Origin: Psammoneis japonica | Lineage: Eukaryota | Length of the DNA: 64,000 nt | Reading direction: 5' to 3' | Assembly (NCBI GenBank): GCA_008632985.1 | Contig: QPGO01000037.1 | Span: forward strand, 310,001-374,000 | In this document: positions 9,267 through 58,099 of the stretch, in pieces | How the letters are laid out: each line of letters begins with the position of its first letter | How positions within the stretch are numbered: the first letter of the stretch is position 1 | Notes under the pieces: generated by a model | Told to the model about the DNA's origin: nothing | Databases searched by the model: none | Seen by the model: the letters and a program-made list of their open reading frames with translations, nothing else | Translations under genes and position numbers: made by a program

Positions 9267-9566
9267 TATTTAGGGAATTAGTAAGTGGAGCGACACATGC
9301 ACTGTAGCTCCAGAGCTACTAGAGCGTCTATAAAGAAGGGTATCTTCGCTAGAGCTTACACACTTATCCTATGACGAGTGCCTACTCTTTTTGCGAAGAT
9401 ATTTTCCCAAGATAGGCCGCATAGCATGGTGCTCCCTGTTGCAGAGACTTTATGCCATAGTCGGATCGGCGGCAAGTGTTTGGAAAGCTACACGTCAACG
9501 CAAAGCATCACAGTAGCGTGTGAACCCACTCCCCTTCTTTTCAAAGTCTCCCCTATACAATTCTCG

Positions 9567-10786: not shown

Positions 10787-11176
10787 TGCAGCAAGAGTGC
10801 CAAATCAATAGTAGCTATCCAACAGCAGACCATGGCTGTCATTCATCGAGTGCGAAAGAACAAACCAACGGAAAAAAGCCCGACCTCAAAATATAAAATT
10901 GAAAATTCACTGGGGCAATTGGGGGCAATGTCTCTTTTTCAAAATAATATATATTGAATGAATCCTGCAAGTTTTTTAATGTTGTATGATTTGGTATGTT
11001 TCACCGTGAGTCGACGTACGAAAGACAAAAATCGTTAGTTCAAGTCTTCCGTTGCCGTTGAATGAATGAAATATGTAACCGCCACAAACTTTCGCTCTTG
11101 CCAGTCTCGCTTTTGGCCATGAGCAAAAACCGCAAGGGCTTGACAGTTTGTGACTTGTACCATACACCAAGATCAA

Positions 11177-12600: not shown

Positions 12601-13130
12601 AATTTTAGAGCAAGTCCTCTGTCTCCATATCGACGTCATTTTTTGCCTACATGTCGATGTCCCCGTACTGTTATGTGTTTTTGTGTGGAGAACTTGCCTA
12701 ATGAACTACGTGAAATTTGATCGACGGCTTGATCGTCCAATGGTAGGTGGACTACTCCATGCAACACAAACTATGTTAGATGAAGTTTTCTTCTCCCTCT
12801 GGCTTCATGCTACCGTACAGTGTATTGTGTATTGTTGCGCCGCGAGGGAAAAAAGAAAACACGAAATCCATCAACGAATCGGTCATTTTTGTCGGGTCAT
12901 TTGAAGGACGTTTTTTGGTTGAGGTGCTGAGGTCTGCCGTTACCGCGTTTATTTAGCGTTCACCATAAACCGTAACCCAAGAGACCAGCCAAACAAAGCC
13001 AAGCGTGGGCAAGAGCAACATATAACAGTTGCGTTGCTTCCCCCCCCAAGACACTGTAAATGAGTTGCTGTAATTTTACCGCTATTCATGCGATCATTCG
13101 CAATGTTGGACGTATTTTCCTGATCCTGAT

Positions 13131-16100
13131 TGCCAAGTGGCGCCAAGTAATAGTATAAAGTAGCGTTGTAAAGTTGTCTGTTGCTAATATTGTGAGAAGA
13201 AATGAAAGAGATTCGGCTACTCCGAAATCTCGTAGAATTAATACTAAGAAACCGCGTAGAAATATAAAGAAACAATCTTTCGAGAGGCATCGAGATGTAT
13301 CGAGAAAGGAGAAGAGGTTTCTAGAAAGTGTCATCGTTGACATCCTTTTGACACTTTTGACACCAGGCTGACACCCACGAATGAACACACGAATGAATAT
13401 AGATGACCGTGATACTCGGCACTCGCTTCCCCAATTGAGACGTTAGAAGACAGGGTGAAGACGGTGGATGTTGATACGTTCAGTGACGTGAGGCGAGCGC
13501 TGGATGGCAACGGTTCCATTGGCATGGACACGTACGATGCGGAAAGGACCATCTTTGGTGTTGAGTTTGCGTTGGATGTCTTTGGTCATGACGAAGACTT
13601 GATCGCCGATGTTGCAGTCGCAAGCAAGACGTTTTGCGTTTTCGCGGAGATTGTTGCGTAAGACATCGCGCTTGCGACGGGTGTTAATCATTTTCCAGTT
13701 CGCAAGATAAGCAGCAGAAATGACCATGTCTCGACCGAAGACAATTTGTCCGGGAGACAACACAAGGGCAGTGTGGCAGGTGCTGCGCAAGGCCCATGCA
13801 ACGGATTGCAAAATTCCATGAATTGTGTCTTCATCATGATCGCGAGAAGGGAGATCCATCGCACGGAGAGAATCGGCCATCACTTGATGAGTGTGTTCAA
13901 CGAACGCGTTGGCTTGAGGATTCTTGATTGTTGTGGGTTTCGGTTTAACACCACAACTGCAGAGGAGATCTGCAAACTCGGAAGTGAATTCGGAACCGTT
14001 GTCATAAATGACAATTTCTGGTCGCGGACAGCGACAAAACCACTCGCGATCGACGACAAGTGAAATGTCTTCGGACGTTTTGAACTTGCAGTTCGCGAGT
14101 TCGACCCAACGGGTTGCGACATCAATGGTTGAAACGGCTCTGATTTTGCGATCGACACCATTTTTGTCGGCACACGTCCAGGGACCAAAAAGATCGACTT
14201 GAGTTGCCTGCCAAGGTTTATAAGTAGCATCTGGAAGAGGCAATTCGCCACAGTTTGCCATGGCACGCTTGGATTTGGAACACGTGCGGCACTTGCGGAC
14301 AAAAGTGCGGACTTTCGTCTGCATGTCGCGAATGTAAAAATGTGAAGCCAAAGTTTGGCAGGTGCGATTAGCACCAGGGTGGCAGAGAGTTTCATGGCAC
14401 CACCGTAGAACTGCAGGAAAAAGCGTTGGAGGGAGGACAATCTTGTTCTTGTAAAGGACAATCTGTTTTCCGTTGAATGGTTCGGCTGAGCAGGATTCGG
14501 ACTTGTCGAGTCGTTGCTGAAGAGCAGAATCTTTTTTCTGATGGTCGGCGACAATGTCAAAAGTAACGGGGAATGTCGAAGGATCGATTTCCAACGAAGT
14601 CATTTCCTCGTAATCACTTTGATCGACTTGGACAACAGGACAGCGACTCAAAAAATCAGCCACGACATTCTCATGGCCTGGTGGGTGCTCGAAAGAGCAA
14701 TCGCACTCCTCGAGAAGCAAATGCCAGCGTTTGACGCGTTCTGACTTGAATTTGTCAAATGCAAGATTTTTGTGATCGGCAAACAGGTGGCATCGATGAC
14801 CAAAAAGGATGCTTTTGAAATTTTCGGTCGTTTCCACGAGCGACAGCAGCTCTTTTTCCATTGTCGTGTAGTTTCGTTGCGCTTGAGATAATTTTCGGCT
14901 GTAGAATGCAATTGGCCATTCGCCATCGTCAAAATCTTGAGCAATCACTGCACCAAGTTGACAATCACTCGCATCCGGATAGATCTTGAAAGGTTGAGAG
15001 AAGTCGGGGAATCGGAGGAGGATTTCGCGCGCCATGATTTTTTTCATCTGATTGAAAGCTTCCGTGTGGACGTCAGTCCACTTGAATTTGACTTTGTCTG
15101 ATGACAGCGCAGTTAAGGGCGCAAGAGTGTGGCTGCGTCGGCACCACAATTTCTTGTAACAATTCACGAACCCGATGAAACCACGTAATTGTCGACGGTT
15201 TTGAGGGCGAGCGAAGCGAAGCAAGGGTAGGATTTTCTTTTTCTGAGGCTGAGTGCCTTTTGCAGTCATGGCATGGCCTGAGTGGTCGACGGTCTTGGCG
15301 GCGAAGTAGGATTCTTCGACATGTGCATGAAGATTGTTCGCGAGGAGCCGTTGCAAGACGAGTTCGAGTCGTTGACAGTGATGGTTGAAGTTGTTCTTGG
15401 TAAAGAGGATGATGTTGTCGATGTAGACTATGACATCTTCCATGTCATGAAAAACATCTGTCATGCAAGCTTGAAAAATGTCGCTTGCCGGTTTGATTCC
15501 TTGCGGCAGGCAGTTGCAGCAATGCTTGCCCCACGGCAGGATGATGCCGCAGAGTTTTTTTGACTCGTCGTCAAGCACGAAGTGACAGTAGCCTCGGTTG
15601 AGGTCCAAACATGTCGCATGGGTAAAGCCGTTCATTTTCCATGCGACGTCGTCGATGACAGGCAGTGGATGTGGATGCCGTTCGAGACACTCGTTGAGTT
15701 TCCGTAAATCGGATAAGAAACGGATGCCACCGCTTTTCTTCGATCGGAAAAGACAGGATGCGCCCCAAGGAGAGTGAAGTTTGCGCGTGACAACATCGAT
15801 TTTTTCCAATTCATCCACTTCTTTGCGAGCCATGGGATGTGACGCTTGCGGAATGGTGCAAGCTTTCGCACAGCATGGACGCGATCCTGGTTTCAGGGTC
15901 AAATGGACGGGTTTACCGGGTGCAGCTCCAAGTGCACCATCGAACAATTGCGGGCATCATCCGAAGAGTTCGATGAGTTGGTGCTGTTGATCGTTGTCAA
16001 GGTGTTTGCAGCGTAGAACCATGTCGCGATAATTGTGCTTGTCGCACGCATTGCTCGTCATACCTCGAACCTGACGGTTGACGGCATTCTGGAAGAACTT

Positions 16101-18030
16101 GGGTAATTCAGCATCGCCGGGATGAATTGCATTAACTTCGACTTGGTCGAAAGAGCCCTTGGATTGCATGGACAGGGTGACATCGTCCCACGTGATTGTT
16201 TGATGTCGAAAATCAAAAACGATTCCCATTTCTGTGGCGGTTTTTCTTCCGATGATAATGTCGTGTTTTCCTGCGGCTTTGTCTTCCATGTGAGCATCGA
16301 CGGAAACCTTCTTGGACGATGCGAAGTCTGGGAACTTCAATGTCAGCGTCGCAATCTCGTGTAGATTAACGGCACTGTAACGGCCTTTAACGGGAACGTT
16401 GCATTTACGGATTTTGTGAGGAATCCCGCGAAGGGCTGAGCGCTTCACAAAATTGCGATTTGCGCCGGCATCGAGTAAAGCAACACGGAACTTGTGCATT
16501 CCAGAATGAGCATCAATCATCTGGACACGCGCTTCCGTGGTAAGATTGTCTTCTATTTCGGATTCGATGGAATCGTCTAGAAGAGACGTGACGTCTTCAA
16601 AAATGTCGTTGATGTCATCTGACGCGACGCTGTCGACATCGTTAGAAGCGGAGCGACTAGCTTTGGAGTCCACATTGTTGTTTTCGACGTTCCGTGTGCG
16701 GCTCCGTGTGGGATGGCGGTGTGTCGGCTCGTTTCGAGAGTTATTTTGTTGATTCGGCGCGTTCCGATTTGTGCGGTTCCGCTCATAATTTTCACGTTCA
16801 CGACGGATGACATTGCACTCTTGACCGTTCGGATGTACAACGCCATGGATTGGACATGTTTGTTCACGATTGTTTTGGTTCCTGTTCCTGGTGTCGCGAT
16901 TTTGGTCGTCATTCTGGCCGCGACGCGCATTTCGACCGTTGTTGCATCGATTCCGATTGTCATTGCATCTGTTGTTGTCGGTAGACCCTTTGTCACCACG
17001 TTGTTCCATGCGTCGGAGAGTCTCGTAGCATTGAGCTTGGTCGTTCAAGTTTAAGTTGCGAAGACGGGCTTTAGTCTGAGTTTCGGCCCATGATCTTGGT
17101 CCACATTTTCGAAGGATTACGGACAATTCCGCTTCCGTGAATGACGGAACTCTTTCGGCGTCATCTTCGGTTGGCGCAGGCATGATGTCAATCAACTTAT
17201 TAAAGCGACGTACATCATTAACAAATGACTTGACAGTTTGGTTCCTGGGTTTCTTAAGGCTTTGAAGCCATTCCTCAGTGTCAAGGGCAATTTCTCCATC
17301 CATGCATTGGAGTAGAAATTCTTCACGACAAGTGTCGAATGTAACTTGGTCGTGGTTTTCGTATTCGTTTACGACGATTTCCCAGTCGTCTTTTGGTGTT
17401 CCGGTCATAAGTCTGGTCACGAGCCGGAAACGTGGCTGTCCTTCAGCCGCACCGAGATCGTTGATAAGTTCATCGAAGTTTGACCAGAAGGTAAGAACAT
17501 CTTCCGGTTCAGTTGAAGCTAACTTACGTACCTTGATCGTAGTTTTAAGCCCATCTAGATCGTCAGGATCAATGGGGCTTTCAAAAGACACGAATTGGTC
17601 TTTGCGTCGCTCTTCCTCAGAGCGGTCAGGACGCTTAAGTTCGAATGGGCAGTTTTCTGCTGACATGTCTGGTCAGGACAATATGATCGGTAGATATATC
17701 TCAAGAGAGATGAATAAGTGTTTGGGAGTAAATTTACTATGCCAAGTGGCGCCAAGTAATAGCATAAAGTAGCGTTGTAAAGTTGTCTGTTGCTAACATT
17801 GTGAGAAGAAATGAAAGAGATTCGGCTACTCCGAAATCTCGTAGAATTAATACTAAGAAACCGCGTAGAAATATAAAGAAACAATCTTTCGAGAGGCATC
17901 GAGATGTATCGAGAAAGGAGAAGAGGTTTCTAGAAAGTGTCATCGTTGACATCCTTTTGACACTTTTGACACCAGGCTGACACCCACGAATGAATATACG
18001 AATGAATATAGATGACCGTGATACTCGGCA
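13131..18030 (-). mobile_element. Full-length Ty3/Gypsy LTR retrotransposon (element A)
   Basis: 291-bp LTRs at 13131-13421 and 17740-18030 (TG...CA), 5-bp TSD CTGAT, PPT next to 13421, gag-PR-RT-RH-IN order. Confidence 0.97.
13443..17666 (-). pseudogene. Element A single-frame gag-pol with one in-frame TGA at 15957-15959 and many Tyr->Cys/His changes
   Basis: LLDAGA protease, YIDN (YIDD), DAS RNase H, H..LCH..C..C and D,D,E integrase, GPF motif. ORFs 15957-17666 and 13443-15947 are in the same frame. Confidence 0.9.
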
Positions 18031-19641
18031 CTGATATCAGCGGCTACCTTCCAAACGCTGATTCCGCAAATAGCGACTTCGTCTAAATCAATCCTGTACG
18101 TGAGATTGACGACAAAAGGAAATACGAGTATCTCTGGAAAAGAGGAAAAGCACTTGTGTACTCGAGACGAGATTAGAGATGGTGCATGGAAAAAGGTTGT
18201 GCGGAATGCGCCGCCGTATGTCCCGACGGACAAGCGAAGCATTTGCTATGGTGACGACGTTTTTGAGCAACCGACATGGACTACGTGGGATTGGTCGCCA
18301 TTCAACGTTTCACAAAGTGAACAAGGCTCATCTGAAAGTGGCTGCCTATTCAACGCATGGGACAATGATACGTTCTGTAAGGTCGCAAGTGGCATCCAAA
18401 CGAGCAGTAGGCCGACATTGGCCATTGTTGGGGACTCGCTCTCATTTGAACAATACAGCTCGTTATCACTGCTGTTAGGATTGCCTTCAAAAGAGGACGA
18501 TCATCACGCAGCAAGAAGAGCGAATCGGAATATTGTTAAAACGGCATGTAATTGGACAATATTGTACAGACGGAGTGACAGGCTTGAGTTGTTGCCTTCG
18601 GTTGTGGAAGCAAACGATCCAAATGTGATTGTCATTAACCGTGGTGCTCATTATGTCAACGACGGACGACTAGAGTCTGAGCTTAAGCGATCAATTCAAT
18701 TTCTGCAAAGCTGGCAGAAGGACTGCACTGCTCAATGCAAAACATGTTGGCTCTTTGTGCGAACTACGGTTCCGGGGCATCCGAACTGTGGTGGTTACAC
18801 CGAACCGAGCAATAGTATAGAAGCGATGGAAGCCTTGGTTGGAAACCTGAGTAACTATGCGGGAAGCGAGAAAACCTATCATTGGTGGGACATGAAGCAT
18901 CAGAATGAGCTGGTACTCGATCTCTTTTCAAAGTCGGGGCTACAATACCAGGTCATTGACGCGTACGAACTCAATATCTTGAGGCCAGATCACCATCGGC
19001 CCCCGGATTGTCTACATAGTTGTTATCCTGGAAAGATGGATGTATACAATCAATTGCTACTCCACTTTTTGCGACAGAATTTGATTGAGACAAGATCACC
19101 CTCAACCTGCTTTCGACAAGAGCAAGCGCTCACAGGCAACTCAAGCCTTAAACTGTGAATACGCATGTGGTTCCGAATGTGATCCCCAAACTTTGCGGAA
19201 TGACCCCACTTTCATAGTTATTTGGAGTAATTACTATCAATATCGTCTTTGACTAGAATGGCACGCATATTCAACGAGCATATCTATAGAGAGTGTTCCG
19301 CTCATGACGAAGAAAGAATATTCGTAGCTGTCCAAAACAAAACTGTTGTCGATGTTTCCTTGTGCGTTCTAGTGCGGAGAGTTCGCTAAACGATCTTCAT
19401 GAAAGTTGATTTAATACTCCATCGTCCTATAGTTCGAATACTTCATACATCATCAAGGAAGCCATCTTTTGCCGCCTACATTGCCCGTCAACGGGGTGTC
19501 CCTGGCTTGCACGACGAATATCATGAGCATTGATGGCTACTAAAGCTTTCAAGGAGTCTCAGAATATGCAAAGAATGTTGATTCATATTCCTTAGATTAT
19601 TCAGCTGCTATTCCATTCCCGCTCTATTTTGCCTTCTTCGA

Positions 19642-19947
19642 TCACTTGGTCTTGTTGAAGAAGTTTGTCATTATGGATCGAGACGCGGGAGCGGGAGCCG
19701 CCCATGGGTTCAGAATGCGCATGGAGTTCACCACTTCATTTCTTCTTCTTGACTTGTCCCTTGCGCAAAACGAAGACGACATCTGCGTATCTTGTGAGCG
19801 ACCAAGCTTGCCATGGCGTCCAAACTCGTCATTCTCCTTGTTCTCGGTTGTGCGTGGACTGCTCGAGCTCTTTTTGTGATGCACCATTTCCCCGTAGACA
19901 GTGGCTGCATGATTGGCGTTATTCGAGTTGTGGATGGAGGACACCAT
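19642..19947 (-). CDS. Small hypothetical protein, paralog of 8359-8697
   Basis: Conserved blocks shared with the 8359 ORF. Likely start MVSS at 19947. Confidence 0.65.
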   Translation of the reverse strand: MVSSIHNSNNANHAATVYGEMVHHKKSSSSPRTTENKENDEFGRHGKLGRSQDTQMSSSFCARDKSRRRNEVVNSMRILNPWAAPAPASRSIMTNFFNKTK

Positions 19948-20372
19948 GTTTACTTTATTTCCTCTTTTGTCTCCCTGGAGTTTCAAGAAATTTAAATTGT
20001 GATAAGATATGATCGATGTGAGGCAAAAGAAGTGAGGCGCTGTGCAATGTTTGCACTTCCTGCACGACGCGTAGAAATGTACGACAGTTTAGTACCGGAA
20101 AAGCGCGCGAACCGACTCCATGACTGAAACAAATGTCGCGCGTGACGTGGCACTTCAATCGGCGTCTGATTTCGTCCGTGTACTACAGTAACTGACGGTT
20201 TATCGTCTGTCTTCGTCCGAACGCCACGATTTCTGCGGGGAACGCGGAATGCAATTTTCGACACAATGATGCCGAAGTGAGTTGGCGATTTGCGTCGGTT
20301 GACGACTCGAGAGTAGCATTATTGATTGTAATTCATGGCTCTTAGTTTGTAACAAGTGCAAAAAAGAAAAAA

Positions 20373-21879
20373 ATGGGCTCTAGTTACTCCCCGATAGAAT
20401 CATCCACCAGCGAGAACAAGAATTGGTTTCAAGAGAACAAAATACACATTTTCTTTTGGTTTTTAGGTCTTTTGAACAATGCCCCTTTTGTCATCATGTT
20501 GGCTGCTGCCAAGACAATATCCGAGGGCGGTACGGCGCTTGTCTTTCTTGCCAATGTCTTACCTTCCATGGCGGTAAAGCTTAGCGCACCCTATTGGTTT
20601 GACCGAGTATCATATCGGACACGCTTACTGCTGGCTTCGGCATTTATGTTTTGTAGCTTTGCTGTCGTGGCGATATTCAGTACGTCCGAGGAAGAATCGA
20701 AGAGTAACGAAACGGTTGGTTTTGAACTAATTGGAGTAGCATTTTCAAGCGCTGAAGGAGGACTCGGAGAAGCATCCTTGTTGGCATTGGCTGGCAAGTG
20801 TGATGCATCGGAAGCAAATAGTAAGAAGCAATGTATCACTTGTTTCTCATCCGGAACAGGTGTTGCGGGTGTCTTTGGCTTTTTCTGGAAGTTTATATGG
20901 AACGATTGGCTCGGCTTCTCATGAAACAAACCCTCTGGATGGCAACTGTGTTGGCTTTTTGCTACGGCTCGGCCTGCGTACAGTGCTTGACACATGCAGA
21001 AGAGGACCATGGCCTTGAAGAACGGAGAACCAACTCCGACGATGCAGCTATAGAAAACGGACAAGAGGAGAACGATGACACTAACAGAGCGGTGCTTATC
21101 AAGAAGCATCTCAACAAGAAAACGAGGAACAAGACACTGACGCGCTGGTCATTAGTCCTGTGGAGATTGCAGAGTGTGATGAGGAATGGGAGGATGAAGT
21201 CGAAGTGCAGGAAGAATCGATCAAGCATGTACATGACATGTCGCAAGCGGAGAGGTTTCGACTTGTGCTAGTCTTTACCCGTATATGATACCGCTCTTTC
21301 TCGTTTACACAGCCGAGTATGCATTGCAAGCTGGAACGTGGACAGCTATTGGCTTTCCCGTGACCAGTGTTGAAGCACGAGATCGCTTTTATGAATACAG
21401 CAACTGGATGGTCAGTGAGAATATGCGGATTTCAATCAAATTGACTGTACGTCTTCTTTTCTCAATCGATTCTTGTTATGCTTCTTCACCTCTGCAGTAT
21501 CAAGTGGGTGTGTTTTTGTCGCGCTCCTCCGGAACAATATACACGGCACCCATGTCGATTTTATGGCTCATGCCAATGTTGCAAATCGTCAATGTTGTTT
21601 TCTTCAGTTTGGTTGCCGTGCATCACTTTTTTTACAGCTATTGGCTCCTGATACCATGCTTTTACGTCGGATTGCTCGGCGGTGGGTTACATCAACGGCT
21701 ACACGCGAATCTGCGCTGATTTGCCTCTGGAGCATCGCGAATTTGCCCTGAGTAGCACGAGCGTGGCAGAGAGCTTTGGCATTGTCATGGCGGATGTGCT
21801 GGGCCTCTTCATCCAGAGTTGCATTTATCAAGCAAACAATTTGGACGGAGCGGTCGTGGGTTGCCCTGTGTCTAGCTAA
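20373..21879 (+). CDS. CLN3: Battenin/CLN3 (BTN1) family membrane protein, intron 21411-21497, several apparent frameshifts
   Basis: FWFLGLLNN, LANVLP, GGLGEASLL, FSSGTG, PLFLVY.AEY, YQVGVFLSRSS, GLLGG and REFAL motifs, plus a GT...CAG intron. Confidence 0.85.
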
Positions 21880-23179
21880 TGCAAGGTGTAGACTACTGGC
21901 TTGAGTTTTCGAGGCATGATCCTTGGACTTATTTTGTCATCTGGTAAAGGAACAACACGATATTCTGGCAGAATATGCCATCGTGCTTTGTGAAGAAAGC
22001 CAGATATGCATCTCTTCCTGGCGGTATGAATCGGCAATATGTTTGGATCGAGACGTTTCGATCATCATCTGAAATGACTGCACGTGGCACAGGTTTGGTT
22101 GACTCGGAATGGACCATACCTGTAGGTCGTGTAGAGGTTCAAGGGAGCAAGAAGGAGTACACTCCATACTCCCACGGGCACTTATGTACTTCGAATCTTG
22201 TCGAAATATTGTTCTCTTCAACATCGAACAATCCGCACCGCGGGACCGACGGCCGACTCGACAATTTTTTTGTATCTATCTCGACACAATCTGACGGTAT
22301 GCACATTAGCTGTGCAAAGAAGACTTCATTTATGAGTTTAAGGACGCAGCCTTTGCCGGATTGTGCTGCGCTAGGTTTGCACGCACTTGTCTCATTGGAA
22401 GCCATCGGTTGACCAGGTGAGGCGTTGCGCCACCCCTGGCAGCCACCGCTGCGATGATCTTCTCGAGTCGGCAGCAGATCCGAAAGTTATCATCGGGTGA
22501 GCCCGTGCTAGTGTGAGTGGCATCACCGTAGCAAAACTGAAACATCTAGCACCGATTTTTGTTCTCGCAAGAAGCCTCATTTGCTGTCGCCTCCCTTCCC
22601 CCCCCCTGCTGTGGATACGTAAAAAATGTTGGCGCCGTTTCGTAAGCCAATTATGTCGCCCTATTCAACATGTTCTAGCCGTTGCAATCACCATGGGTCT
22701 CCAAGCTGTCCTAGAGATGGAACACAGTCCTGCAGTCATTTTTTCTTATCTCTCTGCATCATCCAATGGCGAACTCTTGTGCCTTGATTCTCCTTCGGCT
22801 GTTGGGGCCGCCATCCTGGTTGGCGCTCGCCGTTTGTTTCTTGTTGTAAGAAAAAAGGCCAGGATCAAGGAAGGTTGTGTGAGTTACGACTACATCCTTC
22901 CAAGAAAACGTCCTTCCAAGAAATTCAGTTGAATTCATGTTTTCGACATTGTTGTGTGTTCAATCTATGATGTGATTGTCGCGTTTTAAGGAAGGAGACA
23001 GGGGTGTTGTTGTTCAACAACCTTCACTAAATGTTGTTCATGGTCAGAGTTGGGGGTCACAGAGCCACTCAAATCGGGGGCACACTACAAGTGATCATTG
23101 TCAGAGTGAATCCGGTTTCTTCACAGCTCAACAAAGCTGTTCTTTTTGCCGTTCTATGATGTGTCCATGAACGCGTTGG

Positions 23180-24757: not shown

Positions 24758-27700
24758 TGCACTGTGCTCGAAGAACGAGTGTAAACGAAAGTAGAATAGT
24801 GCACGAAAAGTGGAAATTATAAGATCAATTTTTGCTCTGTGATTTTTGGTTTCTCCGAACGAGTTCTCAATGGCCTAAAGCTTCTGTACTGCTTCTACAG
24901 ACAAAAGGCCTTTCGGAGAATATATTCGTGACAACAGATTGTCCGGATACGATTGCTATTGACACGTAAGATGTCAACATCGTCAATCGATCGTATTTGC
25001 AATTCTCGACATCCGATCAACTCTGTGTGATCGTTCTGTCCTTTGTACGCATCCACGACTGTGGTACGATTGACATATAAATAATATATAATCATAAATA
25101 TGTATATAACAGTCGCATACTGCATTCGCCTCCCTAATTGCACATTAGAGTCATTTGTAAGTGGATTATTCGACGGACATCGACAGTGTCAATAATGTCT
25201 CCACTTTCACTGTATTGTGCCATTAGCAATGACTGTTGTTGTTTTGTATAGGCAATATAGGGCCGTTCCAATTTCCGAATGTCTTTTGAGAGTGACATTG
25301 TTTGTTTCTCACTTAATATGTATATATATAGTATTACGTCGAGTATTCTCATTGACGTTCTTGTTGATATGAACACAAGGACTAATTGTCCTGGAGTAAG
25401 TGTTTTTCCTGATATCGATTGTACATAGCATCGTGCCCAGTACTTAATGTACGCTCTTAATTATGGCGTTCACTTACTTACTTGTGGATTTCATGTAGTT
25501 TGGCGGGCTTACTTTATATGCCATATTGCTCTGCTGCACTACCACGTTTCATAAGTAATAATAAACGATGGTCAAAGATATTATGACCATTTCGTCTTGA
25601 TAATCAATCCTGTGATGGTTATGAATTCCATTGTGGATTTTTTTTTTTTTGTACTTCAACCATCTATCAGTTGGATTTTAATCGTTATTTGGACGTTTTT
25701 TTCTGACATGCCGGTGTCATTTTGTCATTCCGAAGGCACTGGTTTCGTGCACTGAGTGGATGAATGTCCATTTTTCTTTTCTTTTTCTAGATCTTTGGCA
25801 CATCTCGTGTGTCGACATGATGTGTGTTTTAATGTCTTGCCTCGTACATTGTACAGTGCAACCGTGCGGGTGTTGTGAGATTGTCTTTTGCCAGTGTGAA
25901 GTGGACACGTGTGATGCACACCAATCTGTCACTGTTTTTTCCCAAATCGTCCTTTAAAATGGCGATTTTATCCTTGTGACATGAGCATTTTTCGATCTCG
26001 CTCGCCTCCACGAAAAGTGTTCGTATGACATGTCGCGTCCGACAATTTGGAGGGGAATGTCTTTATCCCGTTTTAACGGCAGGACATTGTCGCAGGATTC
26101 AATTTTCTGTGGCAAGTCGGCTGATCGCGTCTGTCGCGACGATGTTCGCCTTGCCCTCGTTGTGTTCTAATTTGGGGCTGAAGTTGTCAACGTGTGACTT
26201 TGTCCGTTGTGTCTTGTGATCCGTGTGTGCACAAATCTGTTGGCCAAACAGCACATTTCGGAATTTTATGAGTGTTTTCACCATGGACAGAAGTTCTTTT
26301 TTCCGTTGCAACGCACAACATTGAAATCCGTGCATGATGACAATGTGGTTTTTGATTTGATGCGCTCCACATTTTCGGAGACTTTTCGTTCCGTACTTGT
26401 GCTTTTGCCGTTTGACCTTCACTGAGGTGAATTTGGCTAGTGTTGTGCAGGAGATCGTTGAGACTGCATGTCTCGACAATGGTGACGCATGACAACGAGA
26501 TGTCGCAGTGTTCTTTGCGTTTTTCTCGTGTTGCGATTGCTTGAATCGCCTCCATTTTCTTTGCAATCGATTGCATGTCGTTGCGCATGGAAGTCTTGAC
26601 AGTTTATTTCAAGTTAAATGGTGAAGGACTTTTGTTGTCAACCTTCTAAGCGACTGTTCTGGTCATTTGAATGCCGCATTAAGCTGTCACTTGTGCAGGT
26701 GACATTTTGAAGTTACTTTTGTCAGGCACAAACGATCACACACAGTCGTTTTGACAACTTCAAACCTGTTGTGAGTTCACTCAAGTGTTGCACAAAAACA
26801 TCTGGGGCTCCACAGATTCTCATTGGAAGTCCGTGGCACTCATTTTCTCCCCACGGCATGATTTTCGTGTGAGCACGACGTGTGCTTTTTTTATTTGACA
26901 TGGTGGCATTCCATGTTTGAATCAAATGGATTGCATGTGTGAAACGTTCTTGCTTCAATGGCATTTCCTGAACATTGGGCAAAGGACACACCACCTGTGT
27001 GAACCTTGTGCCAAGCTTCTGAGTGTCGGATGCGGTCGAACTCGACCTGTTTTCTTTGGACAATGAGTCTCAGAGCGACTTGTTCAGAGCAATTTCATTC
27101 TCAAGACTTCAATCTTTCACAATGGGTCAAACTCCTTTTGATTGGACGCCTCCAAAGACTGTGATGGGAGAAGGTTCTCACGCGTCATGGAATCGCGTCA
27201 GATTTTCCACAATGAGATCCACTGATGCTTCCCATGCATTCGTCTGAGGAACTTTTCAAAACGATTTCAACCTCTTAAGAAGAAGATTGAGTTGGTTGTG
27301 TTCATTTGGGTTAGATGCATCGCCGCAGTTGTCACTTGATTAAGATCGATGGCGTGACAATGTGAGTCGAGGACCATTGGCTCCGTTGTTGACTCCATTC
27401 ACGGCGTCACATTTTTCAATGTGATCGGTTTTCAGCTTGAAAACATCGGCATCGAAGAGTGCATGAACATTCTTCATAAGGCAATTGCTTCTTCCCATTA
27501 GATTTCTGCATTTGCGCAGTCCAACATGACTTGCAGGACTGGACATTAAGTCGCGTCCCATGATCATGTCATTTGAACCTGAAGAAAATTTGGTGTTTTC
27601 AACATGTGCTGTTTGAATGTCACCATGCTTTAAATTTCGCATGGTGAGAACTGAATTCGGTGTTTGCTGTCAGTCGTAAAGAGCTCACCCTTGGTTTCCC

Positions 27701-28854
27701 AAGTTTTTGGTGGCGGATTCTTGTGTTCTCAACTTTCGCACGAATTTGCGCAAAATTGTGGTTGACGATGTTCCGTTGTCGACAGGAACACGCAGATGCT
27801 TTTTTTTTTTTTTTTTCCTTTCCCAAGGAAGCATTCACACAAATGATGACTCCTGGACCAGTGTGAATTATTTCTGCCTTTTTTTTCTAGGCTTCCTGAC
27901 ATCCAGCAAAGCGTGTAATTCGTGAACAGACCAAAATCATTCTTCGGATTCAGTCTGGATCATCCGATCAAATTGGTGTTTTTCTTCACTGAGGGCATCA
28001 GAATCTGATTCTTTGCCCTTGTGCTCTTTTTCTTTGTTCAAGGAACTTGCTTTGAGCATTTTTTTGAACCGCCTGATCAATCATGACGTTCATCTCTTTT
28101 TTTTGCGAGCGGCATTTTCGTTGTCGCGACGCGACCGCGTGCGATTGCCATTTGAACGGCGCATTTTTGGGTCTCTTTCAGAGTCACCCTTGCACTCTTT
28201 TGCTGGTTCATTTTCGGAATGGCTTTAATCCATGATGCAGGCATTCTTTTTTCAAAGATTGGACCTTTCACTCACTTTGGATTGTGGTGGTGCCATGTGG
28301 GAGACCATTTTTGGAACCAAAATTGGAACCTTTTTGATTGTGGAATCAACTGCGCTGTCAGAGCCCGAATTGATGTGTTTTTTTGTCACAGACGTCCTTG
28401 CCGACCTCTAGACGACTCAAACCTCAATCAGCTCGTCAAGGGTATGATGTGCACTATGCTCGAAGAACGAGTGTAAACGAAAGTAGAGTAAAGTTCAAAA
28501 AGTGAAAATTGTGAGAATTGTTTCTGCGCAATCATTTTGGGTTTCTCCGAACGGGTTCTCAACAGCCTAAACCTTTTGCACTGCTCCTACAGACAAAAGG
28601 CCTTTCGGAGAATATGATCGTGACAACAGATTGTCCGGATACGATTGACATTGACACGTAAGATGTCAACATCATCGTACGATCGCATTTGCGATTCTCG
28701 ACATCCGATCACTTCTGTGTGATTGATCTGTACTTCGTACGAACCCACGATTGACGTACGATTGAAATATGCTTTTATTTAATGTATAGATATACATATA
28801 TAATACGTACATGACAACGCATATTGCATTCGCCTCCCTAATTGCACATTAGAG

Positions 28855-31800
28855 TCAGTCGTTAAACGGCATTATTCGACGAATATTGACAGTGTCAATA
28901 ACGTTACCGCGTTTGATCTGTACTGTGCCATTAGTATGTACCGTTGTTATTACATACGGTCCAACATAGGGCTGTTCTAATTTTTGCGAGTCTTTCTCGA
29001 GTAGTATCTTTTCTCCTACTCTGTACGTGTAAGGAGTACGTCGAGCATTCTCTCGAGCGTTATTTTTATTTATGATTTCTTGTTTTCGCTGCTGGATTAA
29101 TTTCCAGTCTGCGACATGTTGGACGTTAAATATCATGTCTCTATTGAAGATTAGTTGTCCTGGTGTAGCTTGCGTAGTGGTATGATATGTAGAACGTACC
29201 GCAAATGCTACTGCTGATAGTATTCCAGCGAAAGGATCCTCAGTATCTAGAGGTGTATGTTGCAAATCAAATGTACGGAGCATGTTCCCCAGTACTTGAT
29301 GTACGCGTTCAATAATTGCGTTTGCTTGTGGATTTCGTGTAGTTATAGGCTTGACTTTAATGCCATAATCATCTTGCACCATTTCTTTAAATTGGTGTCC
29401 GATGAACTCACTTCCACGGTCATATGTAATTAACGATGGCCAAGGATATCTACTTAACCATGTTCGTTCTAGTAGTCCAGCTACAGTTATGGACTCCTTA
29501 TTTGGGATTTCCACAACTTCAAACCATCCGGTTGCTGGATCGATCATAGTTAAACATTTCAGGACTAGGGGTTTTTTCTTTCCCTTACGACGTATTTTGT
29601 ATGGCCCAATAAGATCCACACATAGTCGTTCCCATGGTACGGATTCTGCGCACTTAGGAGGTAAATGTCCATATTTCTTGTGTTTCTTTTTGAATTTTTG
29701 GCACGTCTCACATCTCGACACGTATTTTCGTATGTCTTCACGTAAGGTGGACCACCATAGGTGTTGTGAGATTGTTTCTTCTGTTCGATTTATGCCAGGG
29801 TGAAGAAGGTACGTATGATACCAATCTATCACTGCCTTTTGTAACGTCCTCGGGACGACAATTTTATCCTTATGACATATGAGCAACCGGTCTCGCTCGC
29901 CTCCACGAAAAGTCTTCGTATAAAACGTCTTATTTGACAATTGGGAGAGAATGTCTTTATCCCGTTTTTGTTCATAATCAAGAACTTTGTAATTTAACGG
30001 AAAGACATTGTCGTAGGATTTTGGTAGGACCTTTTCAGCTAGCTCTTCTGTGCTGAGGGTTTCCATAGGTTCTATTTTCTTCATAGTAAGTCGGCTAATC
30101 GCGTCTGCGACAATATTTGCCTTGCCCTCAAGGTATATTATTTCGGGACTGTATTCTTCTATTATTAGACGCCAACGCATGACTCTGTCCGTTGTGAAAT
30201 TTTTGTGTGTGAGATTTTTGTGATCCGTATATATATTTATCTGTTGGCCAAACAGTATATTTCGGAACTCTTTTAACGTCTCCACTATGGACAATAGCTC
30301 TTTTTCCGTTGTAGTATAACGCGTCTGCGCTCCATTCAGCTTGCGGCTGTAGAAGGCAATTGGTCGGTTTTTCTGAGTAATAACCGCCCCCAATTGAGAT
30401 TTACTAGCATCGGTATATATCTCAAAGGGTATATTAAAATTCGAGTATGATAATAGTATATCTTTGGAGATGATGCGCTTCATATTTTCGAAGGCTTTTT
30501 GTTCTGTTTCGGTCCATTGCCACTTTACTTGGGTAGAAGTGAGTTTGGCTAAGGGAGCTAAAACATGAGATCGTCGAGGCCACATGTCTCGATAGTAGTT
30601 GATCATGCTGATAAAGCGTCGCAATTCCTTGCGAGTTTTGGGAGTTGCGATCGCGCGAATCGCTTCCACTTTTTTTGGAATCGGACTGATGCCCTTGCGG
30701 GTGATGTGAAAGCCTAGATAGTCTACTTCGGGTTTAGCGAAAAAGGACTTCTCGGCGTTGACCTTCAATCCGGCTTGTTCTAGGCGTAAGAACACCGTTT
30801 CAAGCTTCTTGAGGTGGTCTTGAAAATCACCTTTTGCAAGACACAATGTGTCGTCAATGTAAGTTCTGACGAACTCCAGACCTGCCATGAGCTCACTCAT
30901 GTGCTCTTGGAAAATATCTGGAGCTCCACAGATTCCCATCGGGAGTCTACAGTGCTCACATTTGCCCCAAGGCATGACAATCGTGCACAAGCGACGTGCA
31001 TGTGGCGTCAATTCGACATGACAGTGTCCCATGTTTAAATCTAGGGACGTTGCATGCATGAAGCCTTCGAGCTTCTGTAGCATATCCTGAACATTGGGTG
31101 GAGGAAACGGAGTACGAATTAACCTCTTGTTTGGCTCACGAAAGTCGGACAAGAACCGAACTCTACCATTTTTCTTGGGTTGAACAAAGGTTGGAGCCGC
31201 CCATTCAGAACAATTTATTTTTCTCAAGACTTTCAACTTGCATGGTCTTTCAACCTCCTTACGAGTGGTCGCCTCCAAGGCTTGTGGCACGGGAAATGGT
31301 TTGGCATGATGCGGACTCACGCCCGATTTCAACTTTAAATCCACCGGTTTCCCGGTCCATTTGCCCAGAGAACCATCGAAAAGGTTTTCAAATCTTTTTA
31401 AGAGGAAGTTCAGCTGCTTCTGCTCTTCAGGAGTTAGATGAGCAGCTGCTGCGGTCACATTATTGAGGTTTGCAGCGTGATGGTCTGAGTCAAGGATCCG
31501 ATTGACCCTGTCATTAAGACCAATCACTGCATGAGATTCCTCAATGTGATCGGCAATCAACTTAAAAACATCGGCATCGAAGAGTGCATCAACATTCTTC
31601 ACAGGAGCAGTTGCATCTTCCCATTTAATTTCTTCATTCAAGAAGTCCAACATTGTCCCAAGACTTGACATTAAGTCGCGTCCCATGATCATGTCATGAC
31701 GACTCGAAGAAGAAGGGGAGTTGTCAACATGTGCCGTTGTTTCAATCATCTCATGTTTGTCAAATTCGGGCAAGGAGAATTGGATCTTACATCGACTGTC

Positions 31801-32055
31801 AGTCGTGAAGAGCCCTCCTTTGGTTTCCCAGAGTTTGGTGGCGGACACTTTTGTTCTGAGTTTCTGCGTGAATTTGCGCAAAATTATGGTTGACGATGTT
31901 CCGCTGTCGAGGAGAACGCGCAGAGGCTTGTTTTTCACCTCACCTGATGAAGCATTCACATGGGCGACGACTGCTGGACTAGCATGAATTACTTTGGCCC
32001 TTTTTCTGGGCTTCCTAACATCCAGCAGAGCGCAAGACTCCTCTTGCGGTGCAAG
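28855..32055 (-). CDS. Element C Pol (PR-RT-RNaseH-IN)
   Basis: LLDSG, YIDD, YTDAS, HPG...C..C, DLIGP, DRG, NAIIER and GPY motifs. The frame is open up to the gag stop. Confidence 0.92.
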   Translation of the reverse strand, partial: LAPQEESCALLDVRKPRKRAKVIHASPAVVAHVNASSGEVKNKPLRVLLDSGTSSTIILRKFTQKLRTKVSATKLWETKGGLFTTDSRCKIQFSLPEFDKHEMIETTAHVDNSPSSSSRHDMIMGRDLMSSLGTMLDFLNEEIKWEDATAPVKNVDALFDADVFKLIADHIEESHAVIGLNDRVNRILDSDHHAANLNNVTAAAAHLTPEEQKQLNFLLKRFENLFDGSLGKWTGKPVDLKLKSGVSPHHAKPFPVPQALEATTRKEVERPCKLKVLRKINCSEWAAPTFVQPKKNGRVRFLSDFREPNKRLIRTPFPPPNVQDMLQKLEGFMHATSLDLNMGHCHVELTPHARRLCTIVMPWGKCEHCRLPMGICGAPDIFQEHMSELMAGLEFVRTYIDDTLCLAKGDFQDHLKKLETVFLRLEQAGLKVNAEKSFFAKPEVDYLGFHITRKGISPIPKKVEAIRAIATPKTRKELRRFISMINYYRDMWPRRSHVLAPLAKLTSTQVKWQWTETEQKAFENMKRIISKDILLSYSNFNIPFEIYTDASKSQLGAVITQKNRPIAFYSRKLNGAQTRYTTTEKELLSIVETLKEFRNILFGQQINIYTDHKNLTHKNFTTDRVMRWRLIIEEYSPEIIYLEGKANIVADAISRLTMKKIEPMETLSTEELAEKVLPKSYDNVFPLNYKVLDYEQKRDKDILSQLSNKTFYTKTFRGGERDRLLICHKDKIVVPRTLQKAVIDWYHTYLLHPGINRTEETISQHLWWSTLREDIRKYVSRCETCQKFKKKHKKYGHLPPKCAESVPWERLCVDLIGPYKIRRKGKKKPLVLKCLTMIDPATGWFEVVEIPNKESITVAGLLERTWLSRYPWPSLITYDRGSEFIGHQFKEMVQDDYGIKVKPITTRNPQANAIIERVHQVLGNMLRTFDLQHTPLDTEDPFAGILSAVAFAVRSTYHTTTQATPGQLIFNRDMIFNVQHVADWKLIQQRKQEIINKNNARENARRTPYTYRVGEKILLEKDSQKLEQPYVGPYVITTVHTNGTVQIKRGNVIDTVNIRRIMPFND

Positions 32056-33210
32056 TCATTCCTCGGAATCACTGCGCGTCATTTTTTCAAACTGACAATT
32101 TTCCTCGTCAAGGGCATCAGAATCACAATCTTTGCTCTTGTGTTTTTCATCATTGTTCGAAGAACTCGCTTTGAGTAATTTTTGAACTGCTTGGATCGCC
32201 ATGGCATTCAACTCTTCTTTGCGAGCGGCGTCATCGTTATCGCGACGAGACCACGTGCGATTGCCATTTGAACGGCGCCGTTTCGGGTCGGGTTCATAGT
32301 TCCCACGGCGTTCTTTCGCAAGTCTTTTGATCGACCAGCACTTGTCCGTGTTGTGAGTGGATTTCTCGCATAAAATGCACCACTTCTCGGACTGAGATTT
32401 TTCGGTGCCATGTTGGTGACCATTTTTGGAACCACGTTGGGAACCACTCTTGGCTTTTGATGCAGCACCGCCACTGCCATCAGCCTTGGCATGAATGCCA
32501 TCAAACATGTCTTCTGCGACCTCTAGGCGCTCCAAGAACTCAACCAACTCGTCATGGGCATGTTTCAAAATTTCGAAACCCTGGACGGTCGACTGACGCT
32601 GCCACTTTCGAGGTGCAAGGTTGAAGAGGATGTCCTTGAGCTCGTTGTCCTCGATCTTCTGTTCCTTCCCAAAGGGAGGATAGAACTTGAGGTCTTCGTT
32701 GACTTCTTGGACCCAAGCAGCAATTTCGCGTACTTTCATGGACTCCGGCTTCTTGAGATCACGACGCAAATAACGTTTCTGCACCGAAAGTGCGTTCTTG
32801 GGAAACACATGCCTCGTGAGATGTTGTGGGCATTTCTCGAAGCTTCCTTCCGCAGATTCGTCTTCAAGGTTCGCTGCCGCATTCTCAAAAGCACGTAGAG
32901 CGTCTCCTTGGAGCAACACACGCATGAGACGAAACTTGTCAGATTGCTTCCTGACACTCTGGCCCACTGAAAGTTGATCGTAGCTCTTGAGAAATTCGAT
33001 GAACTTGGGGACACCTTGTTTCTTGTAGCACTCAACATTGATGGTGTGGGTGCGGCTGTCCTTCTTCTCGGGATGAAAACGTTGCTCCATCTTGAGGCAC
33101 TGGCTCGGTTTGAGGCTCTTCGGCTCGGAGTTCGATTCCAGCGGTTGAGGGACGATTTTCTCCTGCCTCAACGAAGTTTTGGCGTTGGTTGCATGAGGTG
33201 AAAGCTTCAT
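32056..33210 (-). CDS. Element C Gag
   Basis: QKRYLRR capsid-like motif and C..C....H....C zinc knuckle. Same frame as pol, separated by one TGA. Confidence 0.88.
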   Translation of the reverse strand: MKLSPHATNAKTSLRQEKIVPQPLESNSEPKSLKPSQCLKMEQRFHPEKKDSRTHTINVECYKKQGVPKFIEFLKSYDQLSVGQSVRKQSDKFRLMRVLLQGDALRAFENAAANLEDESAEGSFEKCPQHLTRHVFPKNALSVQKRYLRRDLKKPESMKVREIAAWVQEVNEDLKFYPPFGKEQKIEDNELKDILFNLAPRKWQRQSTVQGFEILKHAHDELVEFLERLEVAEDMFDGIHAKADGSGGAASKAKSGSQRGSKNGHQHGTEKSQSEKWCILCEKSTHNTDKCWSIKRLAKERRGNYEPDPKRRRSNGNRTWSRRDNDDAARKEELNAMAIQAVQKLLKASSSNNDEKHKSKDCDSDALDEENCQFEKMTRSDSEE

Positions 33211-35269
33211 CTTGAACTTGTTACCTTCTTGTGGTGTGCACACACAATGCACTGTGCTCAAAGAACGAGTGTAAACGAAAGTAGAGTAAAGTTCAAAAAG
33301 TGAAAATTATGAGAATCATTTCTGCGCAATCATTTTGGGTTTCTCCGAACGGGTTCTCAACAGCCTAAACCTTTTGCACTGCTCCTACAGACAAAAGGCC
33401 TTTCGGAGAATGTGATCGTGACAACAGATTGTCCGGATGCGATTGATGTTGACACGTAAGATGTCAACATCATCGTACGATCGCATTTGCGATTCTCGAC
33501 ATCCGATCACTTCTGTGTGATTGATCTGTACTTCGTACGAACCCACGATTGACGTACGATTGAAATGTGCTTTTATTTAATGTACAGATATACACACATA
33601 ATACGCACATGACAACGCACATTGCAGATCCAGCAGTTCAATGTTTTGGACAGCAGGCTGATGCTGCCATCCTTGCGGTGTGAGTGACAGCTGATAAATC
33701 AGCGCTCGGTTTCCCGCGAGATTCGACTTAGAATCCATCTGAGGGTCGCACAGACTCTCATCGTTGACCTCTTGGGTCTATCAGAGGCTTCTTTGCTGTT
33801 GAGCGGCTCTGGTTTCTTCAGGTCGTCTCGAAAATAATTTCCCTGATTCTGAAGTGCATTTCCTCAGAGGACATGAGTTGTGAGACGCTTGAGGTACTTT
33901 CCAACGATTCCCTCTTGCTCCTTGGACTCAAGGATCATCGATTCGGTCTCAAAAAACTCTCCAATAGTCTCTCCTTGCATGGTAGACGCATTTCTCGGAT
34001 CTGATCGACTCGGAACTTGCATTCTCTGCAACCATGACTTGGTGTAGATTTTTTGACAATGCGGTGCACTTGAGAGCCCTTGATCCTTGGGTGCTTGGAA
34101 TAGACCGCACCAGAGCGAATCCTCTTGTTTGGTGGACGAAAAACAGCGTTCCATCTTGAGGTGCTGCTCGGCTTGAGCTTCTTCCGCTCGGAAATCGATT
34201 CCAGCAGAACTGGTGCGATTCGTTCCTGTTTGTAGAAGAATTTGCAAAGGCACATTAGTTGAAATTTTCATTTTCCGTGCTTTTTACCTTCTGTGGTGTG
34301 CACACACAATGCACCATGCTCGAAGAACGAGTGTAAACGAAAGTAGAATAGTGTGCGAAAAGTGGAAATTATAAGATCAATTTTTGCTCTGTGATTTTTG
34401 GTTTCTCCGAACGAGTTCTCAATGGCCTAAAGCTTCTGTACTGCTTCTACAGACAAAAGGCCTTTCGGAGAATATATTCGTGACAACAGATTGTCCGGAT
34501 ACGATTGCTATTGACACGTAAGATGTCAACATCGTCAATCGATCGTATTTGCAATTCTCGACATCCGATCAACTCTGTGTGATCGTTCTGTCCTTTGTAC
34601 GCATCCACGACTGTGGTACGATTGACATATAAATAATATATAATCATAAATATGTATATAACAGTCGCATACTGCAGGGGCAAGTCTGCAAGTCAGGTGG
34701 GCCAGTGCGGGCGATCGGACGACGTACGTACATACAGAAAGGACAGTAGTACCGTACGTCACCCTCGGATCGTAACAGATTTCAACTGGCGCACAGACAG
34801 ATTTCTACGCGATTTCTACGTACCTCGTACAAATCACGTAGCCGTACTAGTACAAAACGTCTGCCCTCCACCCCAATGTGAAGTATTACGGCTGATGATT
34901 TTCATTCTCTCGATTTCGGGAAACTCGGTGCAATAAGGAGTCGACACCGTACTTGTAGGGGTCCTAGGACTGAAGTCAAAAGCTTGTCAAAAGGACGTCC
35001 GTAAGATGACAGAACAAACAAAGAGCTAAGCCTAGTGTCAAAGAATTATAATAAAACTGTTAAAAGACACCAGCTCGATTCCGAGGTAACGGTGACTAGA
35101 TGCAAAAAAACGATGCTGCTCATTGAATGGAGTGCGCTGTGTAAACCCCGGCCAGTCGCACGCTACTTTGCACCTCCGACAAGAATAGTATGAGACATGT
35201 AGTTTGCCTTGGTCTAGAGGTAGGCCACCACGTACACCATCAGAATTGTAAGCACGTTTGAAAACTAGG

Positions 35270-58058: not shown

Positions 58059-58099
58059 ATGGAGGTCCACTCTACAATGCTTTTTGCTGCTCATCAGAA

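Follow-up and report, generated by a model that had tools for sequence, protein, structure and literature searches.

Mismatches between LTR pairs suggest TpA-directed hypermutation of integrated mobile-element DNA

Introduction

What could make the two long terminal repeats (LTRs) of a single retrotransposon copy differ almost exclusively at one dinucleotide? The question is raised by a stretch of 64,000 nucleotides of GenBank contig QPGO01000037.1 (positions 310,001 to 374,000 of the forward strand; hereafter the window, in which all coordinates below are counted) that holds three LTR retrotransposons, here called elements A, B and C. An original prediction, made from the letters of the window, held that the LTR pairs of these elements differ nearly always where TA is set against TG or CA, or where TG and CA face each other, and that the changes arose in chromosomal DNA. 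Here we describe these mismatches, their direction and their sequence context, and we document that a matching depletion of TA extends over much of the window. We suggest that the pattern is probably the footprint of a hypermutation process that targets TpA in integrated mobile DNA.

Results

Mismatches between LTR pairs

LTR pairs were located by self-BLAST of the window together with direct comparison, and every mismatch was tabulated with its context. Three pairs were found, all belonging to elements on the minus strand and each aligning without gaps. Element A, a Ty3/gypsy element, has its 3´ LTR (in element sense) at 13131-13423 and its 5´ LTR at 17740-18032; its ends read TG..CA, and a 5-bp target duplication, CTGAT, lies next to the LTR. 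The two copies differ at four positions, all of them TA in one copy and CA in the other, with two of the changes in each LTR. Element B, with a 3´ LTR at 24758-25124 (B1) and a 5´ LTR at 34310-34676 (B2), also shows four mismatches in the self-comparison, which make up two adjacent-base reciprocal sites, acTGtg/acCAtg and gtgCAcg/gtgTGcg, and nothing else. The LTRs of element C, at 28450-28828 (C1, 3´) and 33248-33626 (C2, 5´), carry 15 mismatches: ten single sites with TA in one copy and TG or CA in the other, two reciprocal sites, and one CG/CA site (tcGa/tcAa). Altogether, 22 of the 23 mismatched bases, or 18 of 19 sites, are TA-type, the remaining one is a G/A difference at a CpG, and transversions are absent (0/23). 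This listing reproduces exactly the mismatch description of the original prediction (four in A, four in B, about 15 in C, with 22 of 23 TA-type).

Such a share is not a product of LTR composition. The LTRs are not TA-poor (18-28 TA each, GC content 39-41%), and a random transition would have a TA-type appearance at 26-29% of their positions. When transitions alone were placed at random in 100,000 simulations, the mean number of TA-type changes was 6.6 and the maximum 17, such that none reached the 22 observed; the corresponding binomial P is ~2e-11. The TpA enrichment that had been anticipated relative to LTR dinucleotide content is thus borne out.

Direction and strand of the changes

Between the LTRs of B and C, which share ~85% of their letters, no gap is needed in the first 330 alignment columns, and each can serve as an outgroup for the other. 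With the B LTRs as outgroup, TA is ancestral at C offsets 61, 164, 191, 199/200 and 319. The four LTRs have TG, CA, TA and TG at B offset 5/6, where C1 has kept TA, and offset 12 is polarized as CG>CA. The outgroup is uninformative at reciprocal sites B 44/45 and C 69/70, and TA was the derived state at none of the informative sites in this mutual B/C comparison. By this polarity the changes are A:T>G:C transitions at TpA, the reverse of fungal repeat-induced point mutation (RIP). The earlier statement that a related LTR identifies TA as the ancestor at two of the four reciprocal sites is confirmed by B 5/6 and C 199/200, and the two sites it had left undecidable are the two at which the outgroup is silent.

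TG and CA products are both present inside single LTRs and are balanced over whole elements (32 versus 26, and 22 versus 20), which excludes editing of one RNA strand. In an alignment of the whole of B with the whole of C, CA<->TG pairs (62) outnumber TA<->CG pairs (10), the relation predicted when each lineage moves one step away from TA or CG. The process therefore acts on DNA, on both strands, specifically at TpA, and after integration, in line with the original placing of the changes in chromosomal DNA on both strands. The arguments made then against reverse-transcriptase error and ADAR-type RNA editing are likewise supported, the latter given that the LTRs within one copy differ and that TG and CA products are balanced. 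Their premise that LTRs are identical at integration needs a qualification: DNA editing of reverse-transcription intermediates could give LTRs that differ from the outset. Such intermediates should leave TG in the 5´ LTR and CA in the 3´ LTR at reciprocal sites, read on the sense strand. This orientation was found at only two of the four sites, and editing of single-stranded intermediates was rejected as their source.

Target context

The 14 single LTR events share a sequence context. On the strand in which A becomes G, the A is followed by T in 11 events and by C in three, and never by A or G, compared with a following T at 45 of 128 unmutated targets. The base preceding the T of the mutated TpA is A in nine of the 14. 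The tetramers that survive in the TA-depleted blocks described below point the same way: ATAT is absent among 118 surviving TA tetramers in the blocks but makes up 101 of 1164 in the background, ATAC/GTAT stand at 0.22 of their background share, and TTAA is enriched 4.8-fold. These two independent lines indicate a preferred site of A-T-[A]-T/C, with TTA/TAA spared.

Tracts and double hits

Losses are unevenly distributed between the two LTRs of element C. Of 29 inferred ancestral TA sites, C2, which lies beside a TA-depleted half of the element, has lost 11, and C1 has lost three. Read along the plus strand, C2 has six A>G changes in a row and then five T>C (~0.004, by post hoc arithmetic). 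This strand coordination did not extend to larger scales: over-dispersion of TG:CA within blocks (1.3-2.2) was not above that of one host region (1.9), and runs tests on B versus C were negative, with 0.90 and 0.98 of shuffles showing as few runs.

Sites struck in both LTRs with opposite products are more frequent than independent hits would give. Four such sites were found versus 0.75-1.2 expected under independent-hit models, with or without context weights, and the fraction of simulations reaching four was 0.001-0.011. The excess could come from hot spots stronger than those modeled or from a mechanism acting jointly on the two copies of a repeat. In every pair both LTRs carry changes, and blocks that are near single copy are depleted as well.

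TA- and CG-depleted blocks across the window

Depletion was mapped with a 1-kb dinucleotide profile and with segmentation by a two-state hidden Markov model. Over the whole window the ratio of observed to expected counts (O/E) is 0.42 for TA, 1.40 for CA and 1.34 for TG. In the depleted blocks the 1-kb profile gives TA O/E 0.02-0.2, CG 0.03-0.35 and CA/TG 1.5-2.3, and in host stretches TA 0.5-0.8 and CG ~1. TA-depleted segments total 31.2 kb and CG-depleted segments 16.2 kb of the 64 kb, and every CG-depleted segment overlaps a TA-depleted one. The original prediction was correct about the signature but confined it to the LTRs, missing that half of the window carries it, and it proposed no mechanism.

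Three depleted tracts lie within the elements, all on the minus strand. The tract in the A interior (13477-17024) has 53 TA versus 274 CG, the one in the B interior (25690-28402) has 31 TA in 2713 nt with CG normal, and the third covers the 5´ half of C (31262-33270), the only half of this element to be depleted. The other blocks have no assigned strand. A TA- and CG-poor block at 4-4356 contains 13 TA, 43 CG, 468 CA and 515 TG, with the CG-depleted part at 4-3839; its sequence from 1 to 1800 is complex, with no microsatellite. A block at 23344-24780 is free of TA (0 in 1437 nt, with 31 CG) and extends 23 nt into the B1 LTR. In short-read contigs it is near single copy and is reproduced over 1028 nt with seven other letters. 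On the far side of B, composition is normal from 34677 on. Since the TA-free block abuts B1 and normal sequence resumes beyond 34677, B appears to sit at the edge of an older mutated block. The largest block spans 14.2 kb (46309-60497; 80 TA, 1485 CA and 1549 TG; CG-depleted at 46175-56191) and carries weak remnants of RVT_1 (55557-56009) and DDE_3 (57651-58055). The last runs to the window end (61034-63997), with an RT_RNaseH remnant at 63472-63999 and a tandem array of 42-nt period.

The density of pyrimidine-purine (Y-R) dinucleotides is 0.243 per nt in the background and 0.227-0.243 in the blocks, while the share of these steps made up by TA and CG falls from 40% in the background to 4-19% in the blocks. 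A constant Y-R density with a falling TA+CG share is the outcome expected from transitions alone. Pfam searches matched four of 109 open reading frames (ORFs) in the blocks, with only PF17917 (RT_RNaseH) above its curated cut-off, and an earlier set of 24 ORFs gave no Pfam match inside the blocks. The reverse transcriptase, RNase H and DDE remnants identify the blocks as old mobile DNA.

A self-comparison blind to transitions, in which letters were reduced to purine and pyrimidine, added nothing to the repeats that BLAST had found among the large TA-free blocks. Short repeats, 88-93% alike, connect the two large TA-depleted blocks (56163-56281 with 63418-63536, 60438-60559 with 63575-63696, and 56653-56743 inverted to 60349-60439), between which lies a gap of normal composition at ~60500-61030. 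The two may be fragments of one older element. The tandem array of the second, at 62320-62880, gives self-matches at offsets of 42, 84, 126, 168 and 210 and falls within a 732-aa ORF.

Controls and comparison with other copies

Host sequence behaves differently from the elements. Two host genes for PC-esterases, duplicates that are 78% alike, show 17 TA-type differences and 95 transversions among ~209. One of four differences is TA-type in a tandem 334-bp duplicate (5495-5828/5827-6160, 98.8% identical) that lies over the 3´ end of the ORC2 ORF. A single-copy host stretch compared with short-read contigs gave two TA-type changes and seven transversions among the 17 variants listed. The variants quoted from that comparison, 40 of 544, are samples rather than totals. 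Most of the single-copy pieces listed match short-read contigs with 0-2 other letters. Depletion is restricted to mobile DNA, and host genes are spared.

The short-read comparison as a whole, dominated by repeats, contains 470 transitions and 56 transversions at 526 variable places. Among the 23 best-supported element differences listed, 16 are places where the window copy reads CA or TG and the other contigs are unanimous for TA (four) or CG (12). CpG-type differences thus make up 12 of 23 here versus one of 23 in the LTR pairs. Word depth was 6000-23000 for the family of B and C, 1200-2500 for A, and ~55-96 for single-copy sequence. This corresponds to ~100-400 times the single-copy depth for the B/C family and ~20 times for the A interior. 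Over 3 kb, the A interior has few letters private to the window copy among those listed. The depletion in A is probably for the most part shared by its family and inherited from a mutated progenitor that was still multiplying.

Element composition before depletion can be approached from two sides. A related gypsy element on a metagenome contig (47% identity to the C pol) has TA O/E 0.94 and CG O/E 1.08, and the non-depleted 3´ half of C has TA O/E 0.8-0.93. Together, these comparisons indicate that the ancestral composition was ordinary.

Element structure and nesting

In A and C, the Pfam domains are arranged on the minus strand as RVT_1, RT_RNaseH, Integrase_H2C2 and rve, the Ty3/gypsy arrangement. 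The A interior (13422-17739) encodes gag-pol as two ORFs, 13443-15956 and 15957-17672, separated by one in-frame stop. The interior of C (28829-33247) has a pol ORF at 28855-32055 and a gag ORF at 32056-33306. The reverse transcriptase motif is YIDN in A, and YIDD is retained in C. Element B, also on the minus strand, has a degraded gypsy pol in the 3´ part of its interior (25125-28449), where its TA-depleted tract lies, and the 5´ part (33627-34309) is found on the other side of C. An empty-site short-read contig joins 28445 directly to 33627, showing that C inserted into B. Although C is therefore the younger element, its LTRs differ at 15 positions and those of its host, B, at four; LTR divergence at this locus is not clock-like.

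Coding consequences

A change from TA to TG or CA turns TAY codons into TGY or CAY, so a footprint of Tyr replaced by Cys or His is expected; further codons that contain TA are lost as well. The pol ORFs were aligned with 60 homologues, 52-61% identical to C, and a column was taken as conserved when Tyr was present in at least 80%. At 25 such columns C has 16 Tyr, six His, two Cys and one Leu, with all eight replacements by His or Cys at aa 120-368, in the TA-depleted half. At 23 conserved columns A has only five Tyr, together with ten Cys and four His. The products differ between elements: in A, Cys exceeds His (10 versus 4) and all four LTR changes are sense-strand A>G, and in C, His exceeds Cys (6 versus 2). 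These counts are too small for a strand preference to be interpreted.

The same changes cannot make TAA or TAG, such that frames remain open and dead elements keep long ORFs. In the TA-free blocks TGA is the sole remaining stop, and long ORFs occur in all six frames. ORFs of 732 aa (61154-63349) and 448 aa (58437-59780) have no Pfam match, and long ORFs of this kind are likely to be miscalled as genes.

Surrounding genes and other features

The two PC-esterase (Pmr5/Cas1p) genes, at 11251-12300 and 18036-19098 and 78% identical, flank element A, and the second copy starts directly after the target duplication of A. Host genes in the window are long uninterrupted ORFs, such as the ORC2 gene of 700 aa. 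Homologues of ORC2 on record are at most 34-40% identical, and none is near-identical. No tRNA genes were found in the window. At the CLN3 gene, short-read run X1 contains a second haplotype at 20714-21147, present at about half depth (for example, 35.8 of 68.5) and with at least 12 differences, which suggests a heterozygous diploid or a mixed culture. A second run, X2, covered nine of 30 bins. It includes a 200-nt contig at 19648-19847 with a depth of 4769, compared with ~17-58 in its neighbors, consistent with a short, very high-copy repeat. The region 8332-8720 is 67% alike to 19597-19968.

Discussion

We suggest that the mismatches and blocks documented here were probably produced by targeted hypermutation of integrated mobile-element DNA. 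In this model, TpA would be converted to TpG or CpA (A:T>G:C) locally in integrated retrotransposons and other mobile DNA, sparing neighboring host genes. Because it would act after integration, the LTRs of one element would come to diverge almost only at TA sites. The process would work on both strands and in tracts rather than in a clock-like manner, favoring A-T-[A]-T/C and sparing TTA/TAA. A slower decay of CpG to TpG or CpA would proceed in the same elements, most simply by deamination of 5-methylcytosine in silenced repeats. Together, the two would push elements toward a state without TA or CG, with CA and TG as the only Y-R steps.

Several points weigh against this model. Its basis is three LTR pairs in one window, and the 19 LTR sites rest on the assembly, of which the short-read runs may be the source data. 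The B/C family is present at ~100-400 times single-copy depth, and some of the LTR differences could stem from gene conversion or from polishing with the reads of other copies. The depletion in A appears to be common to ~20 copies and inherited, and as such is not direct evidence of post-integration change in the window copy. In element B both sites are double hits and single hits are absent, a distribution on which a simple model of independent hits fails, and the strand-coordinated tracts expected of a processive single-strand deaminase are absent at the scale of elements. Neither an enzyme nor a base modification nor a de novo event is among our observations.

One challenge comes from copy number. 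The LTR-pair differences could be mosaic: short-read polishing, the assembly of a family with at least 100 copies, or gene conversion may have mixed different copies, so that the pairs would sample a family polymorphism that is itself TA-type. The depths of 6000-23000 for B/C and 1200-2500 for A against ~55-96 for single-copy sequence, the 470 transitions and 56 transversions among contigs, and the 15 LTR differences of C, nested in B with its four, are all what such mosaics might produce. This explanation shifts the signature from copies to family, however, and would still need a DNA process specific for TpA. Moreover, the excess of losses in C2 (11/29 versus 3/29 in C1) adjoins the depleted half of C and is better fitted by a local tract, and CpG-type differences, 12 of the 23 family differences listed, are one of 23 in the LTR pairs. 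We regard a mosaic origin as improbable. About as small a chance is given to a different primary lesion, in which a thymine is modified by TET/JBP-type oxidation to 5-hydroxymethyluracil (5hmU), or to a further modified base, and mispairs with G. TpA is self-complementary, so T>C and A>G are indistinguishable by sequence; the two products are about equally common, and the accompanying CpG decay suggests that the elements carry base modifications. 5hmU, for its part, is only weakly mutagenic. The sole experimental report of such mutations, as far as its text goes, proposes adenine deamination with an ADAT2-like candidate (Mettrop et al., 2026, bioRxiv 10.64898/2026.01.13.699255).

Editing before integration, by an APOBEC3-like deaminase on single-stranded reverse-transcription intermediates or by ADAR/ADAT on genomic RNA, seems less probable still. 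All four LTR changes of A are sense-strand A>G, its Tyr replacements favor Cys over His (10 versus 4) and its internal depletion appears inherited, as such editing would have it, and in vertebrates APOBEC editing has been detected by mismatches between LTR pairs, according to the part of that study available to us (PMC4866542). RNA editing, however, could not cause the LTRs of a single copy to diverge. Within individual B and C LTRs both strands are changed, TG and CA are balanced in elements and blocks, and the block with a DDE-transposase remnant is equally depleted. In Bigelowiella natans, the preprint reports, integrated viral DNA present in a single copy acquires the signature de novo (Mettrop et al., 2026). 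An origin of the TA loss in selection, acting against UpA and CpG in the transcripts or codons of elements, has very little to recommend it. Both dinucleotides are under-represented in many RNAs and viruses, as excerpts of a survey state (PMC3829696), and the host background itself has TA O/E of only ~0.5-0.8, but the changes seen here fall in non-coding LTRs of young copies, O/E reaches 0.02 in degraded non-coding blocks on both strands, and selection would oppose the replacement of conserved Tyr residues in catalytic domains. Least credible of all is fungal-type RIP, or another deamination of cytosine at CpA with TA as the product. Left unpolarized, differences between TA and CA/TG are just what RIP produces, as described in the portion of the literature consulted (PMC2621366), but the outgroups give TA as the ancestor at every informative site, and the affected regions are nearly TA-free (O/E 0.02-0.2) and rich in CA/TG (1.6-2.3), the reverse of RIP products; RIP-type CpA>TpA is ruled out by polarity. 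Between them, polarity, the presence of changes on both strands and the substitution of conserved residues contradict pre-integration editing, RIP and UpA selection.

As far as we found, the literature searched contains one matching report, the 2026 preprint on the integrated viruses of one alga. Mettrop et al. (2026) describe TpA hypermutation in mutation-accumulation lines of B. natans, where, by the preprint's account, 231 of 302 mutations fell in integrated giant-virus and virophage regions, and 230 of these 231 were A>G or T>C changes, without exception at TpA. Such changes arose at a rate of ~6e-7, ~1000 times background, and in some lines only. The resulting footprint consists of clustered 1-kb windows in which TpA O/E does not exceed ~0.43 and CpA+TpG reaches at least ~1.5, and domains for reverse transcriptase and DDE transposase are enriched among TpA-depleted coding sequences (Mettrop et al., 2026). 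Those thresholds are passed here by 1-kb windows over 1-4000 and 46001-59000, among others. Both systems, to the extent that the preprint describes its own, combine A>G and T>C at TpA, confinement to foreign or mobile DNA with host sequence normal, what appears to be an episodic course, and windows poor in TpA and rich in CpA+TpG. Judged on sequence, the signature of the window agrees with the B. natans phenomenon on every sequence-level criterion. The substrates differ, being LTR retrotransposons and degraded transposon blocks in the window, and the evidence here is LTR-pair divergence instead of mutation-accumulation lines. The text of the preprint contains no mention of LTR, retrotransposon, CpG or "context", although its supplements may hold context data. 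Features that go beyond that main text are the co-depletion of CpG, the A-T-[A]-T/C motif, the replacement of Tyr by Cys or His, the constant Y-R density and the double hits. The organism of the window, whose host ORFs are uninterrupted, is probably a species other than B. natans. The genome of B. natans is intron-rich.

Which activity might be responsible? Tentatively, and at rather less than even likelihood, we favor enzymatic deamination of adenine to hypoxanthine, a base read as G, with an ADAT2/TadA-like enzyme or another deaminase as the candidate. In the window the 3´ neighbor was T or C in all 14 events, with G and A absent, whereas ADARs favor a 3´ G. The resemblance to ADAR and ADAT lies in the conversion of A to inosine, read as G, and in the 5´ U/T neighbor, which the Discussion of the preprint gives as the preference of ADARs; its authors propose an ADAT2-like DNA adenine deaminase (Mettrop et al., 2026). 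Amphioxus BjADAT2 is reported, in the excerpt consulted, to deaminate both A and C in DNA (PMC10354150), an activity that would parallel the loss of both TA and CG described here. The CG component on its own resembles the decay of methylated transposons, in that CG>TG/CA occurs in the same elements and CG O/E falls to 0.03-0.35 in older blocks. Such decay covers only this component, which is slower and in the window always accompanies TA depletion.

As in APOBEC3 editing, a deaminase-type hypermutation of retroelements is visible as LTR-pair mismatches (PMC4866542, as far as consulted). APOBEC3 causes plus-strand G>A by acting on minus-strand cDNA before integration, whereas the changes here are A:T>G:C at TpA, on both strands, and affect old resident blocks too. 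With RIP of ascomycetes the process shares an exclusive use of transitions, dinucleotide specificity, inactivation of mobile DNA in place, sharp-edged blocks and possibly the mutation of both repeat copies. RIP converts C:G to T:A, mainly at CpA, and thereby generates stop codons and new TpA steps; the process in the window runs the other way, removing TpA and raising GC, and can yield neither TAA nor TAG. A further difference from RIP is that a single-copy insert is also a target in B. natans, as the preprint relates (Mettrop et al., 2026). It is conceivable, if on balance doubtful, that the window records a RIP-like but oppositely directed defense, outside the chlorarachniophytes, that recognizes repeated or foreign DNA and strikes the same TpA in both repeat copies in one episode. 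Hits of this kind would explain the excess of reciprocal TG/CA sites, and elements so mutated, their frames still open, might go on being amplified in trans. More generally, TpA hypermutation possibly has a role in genome defense.

A mutational process of this kind, confined to mobile DNA and with a specificity of at least 200-fold for a single dinucleotide, has, as far as the literature searched shows, been reported only once, in the integrated viruses of one alga. The signature is now seen in LTR retrotransposons, probably of another organism, and LTR pairs record the process without an experiment. The extended target motif can be used in testing candidate deaminases, and the double hits raise the question of whether both copies of a repeat are struck at the same site. 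There are also consequences for how such genomes are read. The integrity of an ORF is no evidence of a live element, and TA-free blocks give long spurious ORFs in all six frames. Dating by LTR identity fails at this locus, where the nested, younger element looks the older, and if a RIP-like defense of this kind is indeed at work, dating by LTR divergence would be invalid in such genomes.

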